From Escherichia phage EC.P1: 64,000 nucleotides of DNA. Location: sequence record PQ657772.1. One strand, 5' to 3'. A program made the position numbers and the translations under genes. The notes beneath the pieces were generated by a model that had not been told where the DNA came from, ran no database searches, and saw only the letters and a list, made by a program, of their open reading frames with translations. Shown here one piece after another: positions 40,224 through 40,585 of the stretch. The first letter of the stretch is position 1. Every line of letters begins with the position of its first letter.

Positions 40224-40585
40224 ATCACCAACTTTAATTAAAAAAATGGATGGTGACGCTTTTAAACGCCGCTGTTAATTCAGCTTTATAACCACCCGTT
40301 TTAACTTGCCTTTCGGCTACCTTGACGTGGGGCGTACAGGCTACTAAAAGCAACTACTGTAAACATATTTCCACGCCTTACCCTTTTAAATAAAAGTCCA
40401 TCCGGTTTTCCAGTTTGGTGAAGGATAGTCACCTCTAGTTTAAACCTGCTAGTCAAGTAATAATTGCCTATCGTCCAATTATCAAACCCGTCTAGGTTAA
40501 CATTCACCACTTCCTAGAGTACCAGAGATCTTGTTCTGGATTGCATCGACGTAACTTACACCATATACGTCTGATTGTGGAATTC

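Follow-up and report, generated by a model that had tools for sequence, protein, structure and literature searches.

Phage T4 carries within its tRNA cluster two further stable RNAs, RNA C and RNA D (species 1 and 2), whose biological role is still not known (PMC3014915). ROOL and GOLLD, RNAs of phages and prophages that are often found near tRNA islands, are multi-pseudoknotted and have no known protein partner or function; they form RNA-only nanocages, and many GOLLD RNAs are longer than 800 nt (bioRxiv 10.1101/2024.12.08.627333). Theta ribozymes of the hepatitis delta virus (HDV)-like type, which are structured and pseudoknotted, have been reported beside phage tRNAs (PMC10879173), and the jumbo phage PA5oct, which is described as related to 121Q, PBECO4 and RaK2, has two transcripts without open reading frames (ORFs), ncRNA001 and ncRNA002, that account for 2-5% of phage reads in RNA-seq (PMC7318152), which shows that transcripts lacking ORFs can be abundant in jumbo phages of this clade. 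Here we consider a 64,000-nt stretch of Escherichia phage EC.P1 (PQ657772.1; "the window"), a jumbo coliphage of the 121Q/PBECO4 type (Asteriusvirus), and within it the 362-nt interval 40224..40585 between a predicted promoter and the next well-supported gene, over which the window is 99.5-99.7% identical to fEgEco12 and WPEC3 (BLAST). An earlier note on this DNA had read the interval as a stable RNA or a long regulatory leader. Our best explanation, to which as a whole we give a probability of about 0.72, is that it consists not of a leader but of two independently folding non-coding RNA (ncRNA) genes, RNA1 and RNA2, and that RNA1 is best read as a trans-acting RNA.

Support for RNA1 as a discrete entity can be found in its distribution. 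When we compared the region with 50,697 phage records by BLAST, the approximately 187 nt that follow the promoter (40584..40398) proved to be conserved in phages that are otherwise unrelated at the DNA level: identity to the window RNA1 is 95-96% in Alcyoneusvirus (RaK2, K64-1), 91.5-93% in the T4-like Bragavirus (PM2, Pm5461, Mm5), 86% in Shigella phage SdyM_006, 84.5% in the T5-like Novosibvirus (Proteus phages 1 and 2) and 72% in Klebsiella phage KP13-16 (Stephanstirmvirinae), with only a partial match in the Aeromonas phage 65 group (Emmerichvirinae). The same two homology boundaries were found each time, the flanks being unrelated, and members of the family are about 185-195 nt long with sharp edges. 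Searches with nhmmer and a covariance model recovered 21 members, and a profile hidden Markov model (HMM) sorted six true metagenome copies from chance pattern hits. None of the 49 pattern hits from genomes of bacteria and archaea passed the profile HMM, all being due to chance, and no match was found in 5,426 E. coli genomes, results that led us to reject a host origin for RNA1; pattern scans of IMG/VR returned only isolates already known plus one chance hit.

At every locus whose flanks we inspected, in at least six phage lineages, RNA1 lies in unannotated DNA within or beside a tRNA cluster and on the tRNA strand. Its neighbors on the two sides are tRNA-Gly and tRNA-Asp in PM2 and SdyM_006, tRNA-Leu and tRNA-Ser in Proteus phage 1, and tRNA-Pro and tRNA-Thr in Aeromonas phage AP1; in KP13-16 it follows tRNA-Leu. 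In tRNA arrays RNA1 begins 0-3 nt past the CCA of the upstream tRNA (as seen in PM2, Proteus phage 1, KP13-16, AP1, ZPAH1 and loci L105 and L127) and leaves about 10-15 nt to the next tRNA; in the jumbo phages only a few nucleotides separate its start from a strong host-type promoter. By homology, RNA1 is a member of a previously unannotated phage RNA family tied to tRNA clusters: no RNA is annotated at its position in the 55 matched phage records or among the 40 BLAST matches listed, which show nothing there or a "hypothetical protein", and neither word searches nor searches with the RNA1 sequence itself found a description of it in the collection of papers that was searched. No protein gene common to at least three lineages was found around RNA1. 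Two loci deserve separate mention. L105 (ERZ808232.1756) has two diverged RNA1 copies on its minus strand, 2102..2283 and 2419..2607, which flank a tRNA-Arg(acg), the downstream copy beginning directly after the CCA of that tRNA, and in Aeromonas phage 65 (L007) an annotated coding sequence, 65p135 (2243..2443), which is probably a gene-caller artifact, overlaps the 5' part of the RNA1 homolog (2391..2582).

A fold of seven helices and three pseudoknots could be read from the alignment of the lineages (Table 1). In a model-based alignment of 21 sequences, for which the model held the nested helices only and the pseudoknots were left out, the 47 base pairs of 10 helices are 97.5% paired and show compensatory changes at 31 pairs, values that none of 500 shuffles reached, while slid partners were 28-40% paired. 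A separate test, restricted to the 3' half of RNA1, used a plain MAFFT alignment of 20 sequences; here 96.9% of cells pair, versus 25-47% for slid partners, and 12 of the 26 pairs changed on both sides. Because this second test is model-free, and because the pseudoknots were outside the model, covariation in the 3' half and in the pseudoknots is independent of the model fit. Thus PK1, though absent from the aligning model, is 95.1% paired (as CCAC/GUGG, GCAC/GUGC or CCUC/GAGG), and PK2 occurs as GUCC/GGAC, ACCC/GGGU, GCCC/GGGC, UCCC/GGGA and UUCC/GGAA. Compensatory changes affect all six pairs of H3, which is 99.2% paired, and most of the eight pairs of H4; H5a and PK3 are both 100% paired, and in each of them two pairs have changed in both partners. 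The hairpin H7 (CUGG 40413..40410 with CCGG 40405..40402) is an insertion confined to enterobacterial-type members. The long unpaired runs between helices, UUGAC, GCAG, GAGGU, CCUU and GAUGG, are invariant and lie around the two 3' pseudoknots. The conserved G-U pairs, which on the opposite strand would become A-C mismatches, show that the tRNA-sense strand is the one under selection. Two alternative readings of individual motifs were rejected: the UGGU motifs are not T-box-like or CCA-binding elements, as their bases are not conserved and covary with the 5' strand of PK1, and the conserved Shine-Dalgarno-like GAGGU plus AUG is not a translation signal, as no conserved ORF stands behind it.

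Table 1. Features of the RNA1-RNA2 interval; positions refer to the window unless a locus is named.
Feature	Position	Strand	Remarks
Sigma-70-type promoter predicted to drive RNA1	40586..40614	-	TTGACT-17-TGATATAAT
RNA1, 188-nt structured ncRNA gene	40396..40583	-	Homology boundaries, nhmmer and covariance-model hits, covariation
PK1	40507..40580	-	5'-terminal CCAC (40580..40577) with GUGG (40510..40507) in H3 loop
H1, inside PK1	40571..40566 / 40553..40548	-	GACGUA / UACGUC
H2, variable hairpin inside PK1	40539..40535 / 40526..40522	-	CCAGA / UCUGG
H3	40491..40518	-	UCUAGG (40518..40513) with CCUAGA (40496..40491)
H4, hairpin	40459..40483	-	GAUAAUUG with CAAUUAUU; loop with near-invariant GACGAUA
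H-type pseudoknot	40435..40458	-	H5a and PK3, A-rich connecting loop (UUAAA)
H5a	40458..40454 / 40448..40444	-	ACUUG / CAGGU
PK3	40452..40449 / 40438..40435	-	CUAG / CUAG
3' pseudoknot	40396..40433	-	H6 and PK2, with inserted H7
H6	40433..40429 / 40421..40417	-	GGUGA / UCACC
PK2	40426..40423 / 40399..40396	-	H6 loop AUCC / 3'-terminal GGAC
69-aa GTG ORF, judged spurious	40301..40510	-	Spans RNA1/RNA2 boundary; start codon inside PK1
A/U-rich linker between RNA1 and RNA2	40382..40395	-	UUUUAUUUAAAAGG
RNA2 5' domain	40320..40381	-	Closing helix GGCGUGG (40377..40371) / CCACGUC (40330..40324), two nested helices inside
GCC-GAAA-GGC tetraloop hairpin of RNA2	40308..40317	-	Also conserved in EJP2 copy
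53-nt three-way-junction module	40247..40299	-	7-bp closing helix, 4-bp and 5-bp arms; repeated element
Other 53-nt module copies	L002 2943..2995, 3324..3376, 4591..4643; L134 2532..2584		
53-nt module copy	L149 2153..2205 of reverse complement	-	
U7 tract	40240..40246	-	Directly after 53-nt module; ends 17 nt before ATG of downstream gene

Folding energy contributes little to this picture. The z-scores from single-sequence folding are -2.33 for the whole stretch, -0.79 for RNA1 and -2.26 for RNA2, a weak thermodynamic signal, and the case for structure therefore rests on the comparative evidence. The description of the interval in the earlier note as locally GC-rich with several hairpins was correct in direction, since its G+C (0.385-0.41) is above that of the flanking genes (0.28-0.34), but the enrichment is mild, the tRNAs being at 0.455-0.49, and hairpins and G+C by themselves would prove little. 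The stable-RNA half of that note is nevertheless strongly supported, because the first 188 nt are discrete, covarying and pseudoknotted and recur at the tRNA clusters of unrelated phages.

How does RNA1 compare with the RNAs already known from such places? The window and divergent family members were scanned with the 4227 models of Rfam 15, at gathering as well as permissive thresholds. In the Rfam/Infernal scan that the earlier note had proposed, no family reached its gathering threshold in the interval, only tRNAs passing in the window as a whole; at E values up to 10 the interval gave only chance-level hits of 12-14 bits, and five divergent RNA1 family members had no hits at RNA1 positions. 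There was no Rfam match of the interval to a riboswitch or leader family and none to the self-cleaving ribozyme families (HDV-like, hammerhead, twister, hatchet, pistol, glmS). Like RNA1, T4 RNA C and RNA D are small non-coding RNAs within a phage tRNA cluster and on the tRNA strand, co-transcribed with the T4 tRNAs according to the T4 annotation. They are, however, 119-139 nt long, as against 188 nt and three pseudoknots for RNA1, RNA C ends in a tRNA-like T-arm (GGTTCGAATCC) that RNA1 does not have, and the T4 locus that holds rnaC and rnaD gave neither an nhmmer nor a covariance-model hit for RNA1; we rejected homology because no similarity in sequence or structure could be detected. RNA1 also resembles ROOL and GOLLD in being phage-borne, near tRNA islands and multi-pseudoknotted, but it is unlike them in its length and its lack of an Rfam model match. 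The PA5oct ncRNAs are situated outside tRNA clusters, unlike RNA1, no conserved structure has been shown for them, and we found no homology between either of them and RNA1 or RNA2. HDV-like ribozymes are much smaller than RNA1. An HDV-type fold was rejected since no HDV-type family of Rfam matches and the helix order is unfit: it differs from the nested double pseudoknot of HDV, with no equivalent of P3 or P4 between the strands of PK1. By analogy, the best reading is that RNA1 may be comparable in kind to T4 RNA C/D and ROOL/GOLLD.

The surroundings of RNA1 in the window recall those of a tRNA gene. The promoter predicted on the minus strand is near consensus for sigma-70 (TTGACT-17-TATAAT with a TG extension, 11 of 12 hexamer matches), and the earlier note had rightly placed some 360 nt without a credible start codon behind it: the distance is 362 nt to gene 39846..40223, which has a full-length PHROG match (phrog_38341, E = 7.7e-78). 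The exact 29-nt promoter, TTGACTAAATAGTTCAGTACTGATATAAT, is present twice in the window on the minus strand, before RNA1 and at 39226..39254, 10 nt ahead of tRNA-Ser(act), which is followed by tRNA-Met and tRNA-Asn. Because the identical promoter precedes both, RNA1 is wired like a tRNA gene. Its proximity to the tRNA cluster, also claimed earlier, holds on both sides, with tRNAs on the same strand at 38877..39215 and 41640..41729; ARAGORN found five tRNAs in the window, none of them within 40224..40585, and no transfer-messenger RNA there. The tRNA-Ser (39124..39215, minus strand) has the anticodon ACT according to ARAGORN and likewise in the annotation of 121Q; a wobble-position A is seldom seen except in tRNA-Arg(ACG). 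Just upstream of the interval are three tandem paralogous 54-aa ORFs (MTHEEWM...; 41046..41532, minus strand), which match in position and length three 165-nt coding sequences of 121Q (genes 125-127). Both fEgEco12 and 121Q have, just upstream of the RNA1 promoter, a 71-72-nt insertion that is absent from the window and is composed of a partial promoter copy and a mini-ORF of nine codons (MFKDERPDL) that a good ribosome-binding site precedes.

The remainder of the interval is occupied by RNA2 (40381..40240), a division that the earlier note had not seen: the interval holds two modules, the 3' one ending, shortly before the gene, in a repeated 53-nt element and a U-tract that may stop transcription or weakly start it. 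In RaK2 a complete promoter (TTGAAC-17-TATAAT) is inserted at the linker between RNA1 and RNA2, and in contig L082 RNA1 is followed by another promoter and a different RNA; since both place a promoter between RNA1 and the RNA that follows, we consider RNA1 and RNA2 to be separate genes. The arrangement in L082 (JACCDR011713278.1, about 790..600, minus strand) is RNA1, a second consensus promoter, an ORF-free RNA candidate closed by a ~20-bp stem that has one mismatch, and finally RNA2, which makes a series of at least three RNA modules. RNA2 is common only to Asteriusvirus, Alcyoneusvirus and two metagenome contigs. Its 5' domain, with a 7-bp closing helix, agrees with the minimum free energy fold and, over seven sequences including a Kuravirus homolog, is 96.8% paired with four pairs changed on both sides. 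In Kuravirus phages the related copy is found where there are no ORFs; Escherichia phage XT18 (L133) has an unannotated stretch of ~790 nt (1514..2302) in which the relative of the RNA2 5' domain is at 2001..2071; no Rfam match was found in this stretch.

The 53-nt module is known from nine copies that align with no indels and are 96.5% paired, 6 of 16 pairs having changed on both sides. RaK2 carries three, one ahead of RNA1, one closing RNA2 and one behind a tRNA-Ser; the copy in EJP2 likewise follows a tRNA-Ser, and in one IMG/VR contig a copy stands in front of a gene. Several copies read as a perfect TTGACA-17-TATTAT promoter in which the -10 hexamer is one strand of the closing helix; the window copy reads as a weak TTAACA-17-CACCAT, followed by U7. 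It is feasible that the module is a combined terminator/promoter or a tRNA-like processing element. We rejected it as a widespread element, for 64 pattern hits in IMG/VR yielded a single new true copy (L149), the rest being chance matches in coding sequence. Together with the U7 tract, the module is a candidate for an atypical (branched) intrinsic terminator of an RNA1-RNA2 transcript; a terminator scan of the window did not call the U7 site, and no alternative terminator/antiterminator pairing was found at the branched helix of RNA2 and U7.

Close relatives cleanly lack these RNAs, and for this reason RNA1 and RNA2 are accessory cassettes that are gained and lost cleanly. Asteriusviruses of the phAPEC6 type retain the promoter and the first ~37 nt and then jump to the downstream gene, both RNAs being absent, and in Bragavirus phiP4-3 tRNA-Gly and tRNA-Asp are 2 nt apart (by annotation) as against the 197-nt RNA1 insert of PM2. 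Homing endonuclease genes, which may explain the spread of the cassettes, are also near RNA1 in RaK2, SdyM_006 and contig L127. In the window an HNH homing endonuclease (NUMOD4 plus HNH_3) is encoded at 39277..39834, minus strand, with the gene that follows the RNAs on one side of it and the tRNA genes on the other.

Could RNA1 be something other than a trans-acting RNA? The main alternative is a new ribozyme that cuts tRNA-array transcripts, for example at its own 5' edge, thereby freeing the CCA end of the upstream tRNA. Its position immediately behind that CCA in the seven loci named above would suit such an activity, multiple pseudoknots and an invariant unpaired core are typical of ribozymes, and the HDV-like ribozymes reported beside phage tRNAs are a precedent. 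We nevertheless think it unlikely, because tRNA genes in these arrays are packed equally closely without ribozymes, because in three lineages RNA1 is directly behind its own promoter with nothing upstream to cleave, and because no Rfam ribozyme matches even at E = 10 and the helix order is unlike that of HDV. A cis-acting leader of gene 39846..40223 and the tRNAs beyond, whether riboswitch, attenuator or antiterminator (like the HK022 put RNA), would account for elements that stand between a strong promoter and a gene and end, with U7, shortly before its ATG, and also for phAPEC6, where hardly anything separates this promoter from the homologous gene. Yet what lies downstream of RNA1 differs by lineage and may be tRNA-Asp, tRNA-Ser or tRNA-Thr, RNA2, or a second promoter; the loci have no protein gene in common, no riboswitch or leader family matches, and RaK2 and L082 have a new promoter between RNA1 and whatever follows. 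We consider a leader less probable still than a ribozyme, and the leader half of the earlier note is not supported, given the variability of these neighbors.

It is very improbable that the conservation is that of a DNA-level element, such as a target of homing endonucleases, a mobility cassette, an array of promoters, or a site of replication or packaging. Homing endonuclease genes near several loci, the cassette-like gain and loss and the promoter-like hexamers in the 53-nt module all point in that direction, but the endonucleases may account for spread and not for a conserved fold, and against it stand the compensatory changes that keep pairing in 10 helices, the invariable placement on the tRNA strand, and the G-U pairs conserved on that strand. 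Least credible of all is a functional product of the 69-aa ORF or of another small ORF. On the transcribed strand the interval has only two ORFs of at least 30 aa, the 69-aa ORF and a 39-aa TTG ORF (40234..40353); the second qualifies the earlier statement that the interval is ORF-free, of which the part that stands is that no ORF is credible. All near-identical Asteriusviruses keep the 69-aa frame open, and it is listed as a hypothetical protein in several GenBank records (e.g., fEgEco12 g488). It is open, however, only in these phages: same-frame stops occur at codon 3 in PM2 and SdyM_006, codon 6 in mg082, codon 17 in RaK2 and codon 18 in mg105a, five homologs in which the RNA base pairs are kept, and it is because of these stops that we do not regard it as a gene. 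Moreover, its GTG comes directly after AGGAAG, leaving, as had been pointed out earlier, no usable ribosome-binding-site spacing, and it straddles two modules that a promoter separates in RaK2. A protein match would have overturned the non-coding call, and none was found in Pfam or PHROG.

The explanation we favor, two ncRNA genes with RNA1 acting in trans, has its own difficulties. Expression of RNA1 is inferred from sequence for every family member, shuffled sequences match it in folding energy, and the 21 sequences amount to only about six lineages linked by horizontal transfer, a relatedness that the shuffle control ignores. PK1 is represented by three sequence types, with registers in the 5' half partly read by hand for the Aeromonas and KP13-16 types, and the start site predicted in the window, 6-8 nt past the -10 hexamer, coincides with the 5' CCAC of PK1 or lies inside it. 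Natural deletions exist, so the RNAs are dispensable. Finally, no RNA of known function is detectably similar to RNA1, and no neighboring protein is conserved.

If RNA1 is a trans-acting RNA, we would envisage the following. Host RNA polymerase would transcribe it early in infection. In the jumbo phages it would be a primary transcript that is probably cut from RNA2 in the A/U-rich linker, and in the arrays of T4-like and T5-like phages it would be freed by the enzymes that mature tRNAs, with RNase P acting at the downstream tRNA and RNase E and exonucleases acting after the upstream CCA; we propose release by RNase P, RNase E and exonuclease trimming because this is the established pathway of tRNA maturation in E. 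coli. The 3' pseudoknot would then shield the end of RNA1 from exonucleases. With regard to function, we give somewhat less than even odds to the proposal that RNA1 acts in trans with its invariant core binding a conserved host or defense component of tRNA or translation biology, in which case it would be a compact binding RNA, a decoy or modulator of that component. One possibility is a decoy that neutralizes a host factor, such as a tRNA-targeting defense or an RNA-processing or translation component. More tentatively still, RNA1 may found a class of compact, triple-pseudoknotted RNAs that are carried as tRNA-array cassettes and have a specific activity, as a ribozyme or as a decoy or binding RNA; such a class would extend over T4-like, T5-like and jumbo phages of Enterobacterales and Aeromonas.

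That phage tRNA clusters hold extra stable RNAs, exemplified by T4 RNA C and RNA D, has been known for decades, and no purpose has ever been established for them (PMC3014915). RNA1 offers a better handle on this problem, having a defined fold of ~190 nt with three pseudoknots, an invariant core and a host-type promoter, and its discovery corrects the annotation of a sequence that has been recorded as nothing or as a "hypothetical protein" among the matched phage records listed. It is carried by phages of E. coli, Klebsiella, Proteus, Shigella, Salmonella and Aeromonas, and relatives that naturally lack it, phAPEC6 and phiP4-3, exist. These features make deletion and complementation, pull-down, self-cleavage and structure experiments possible in tractable hosts.

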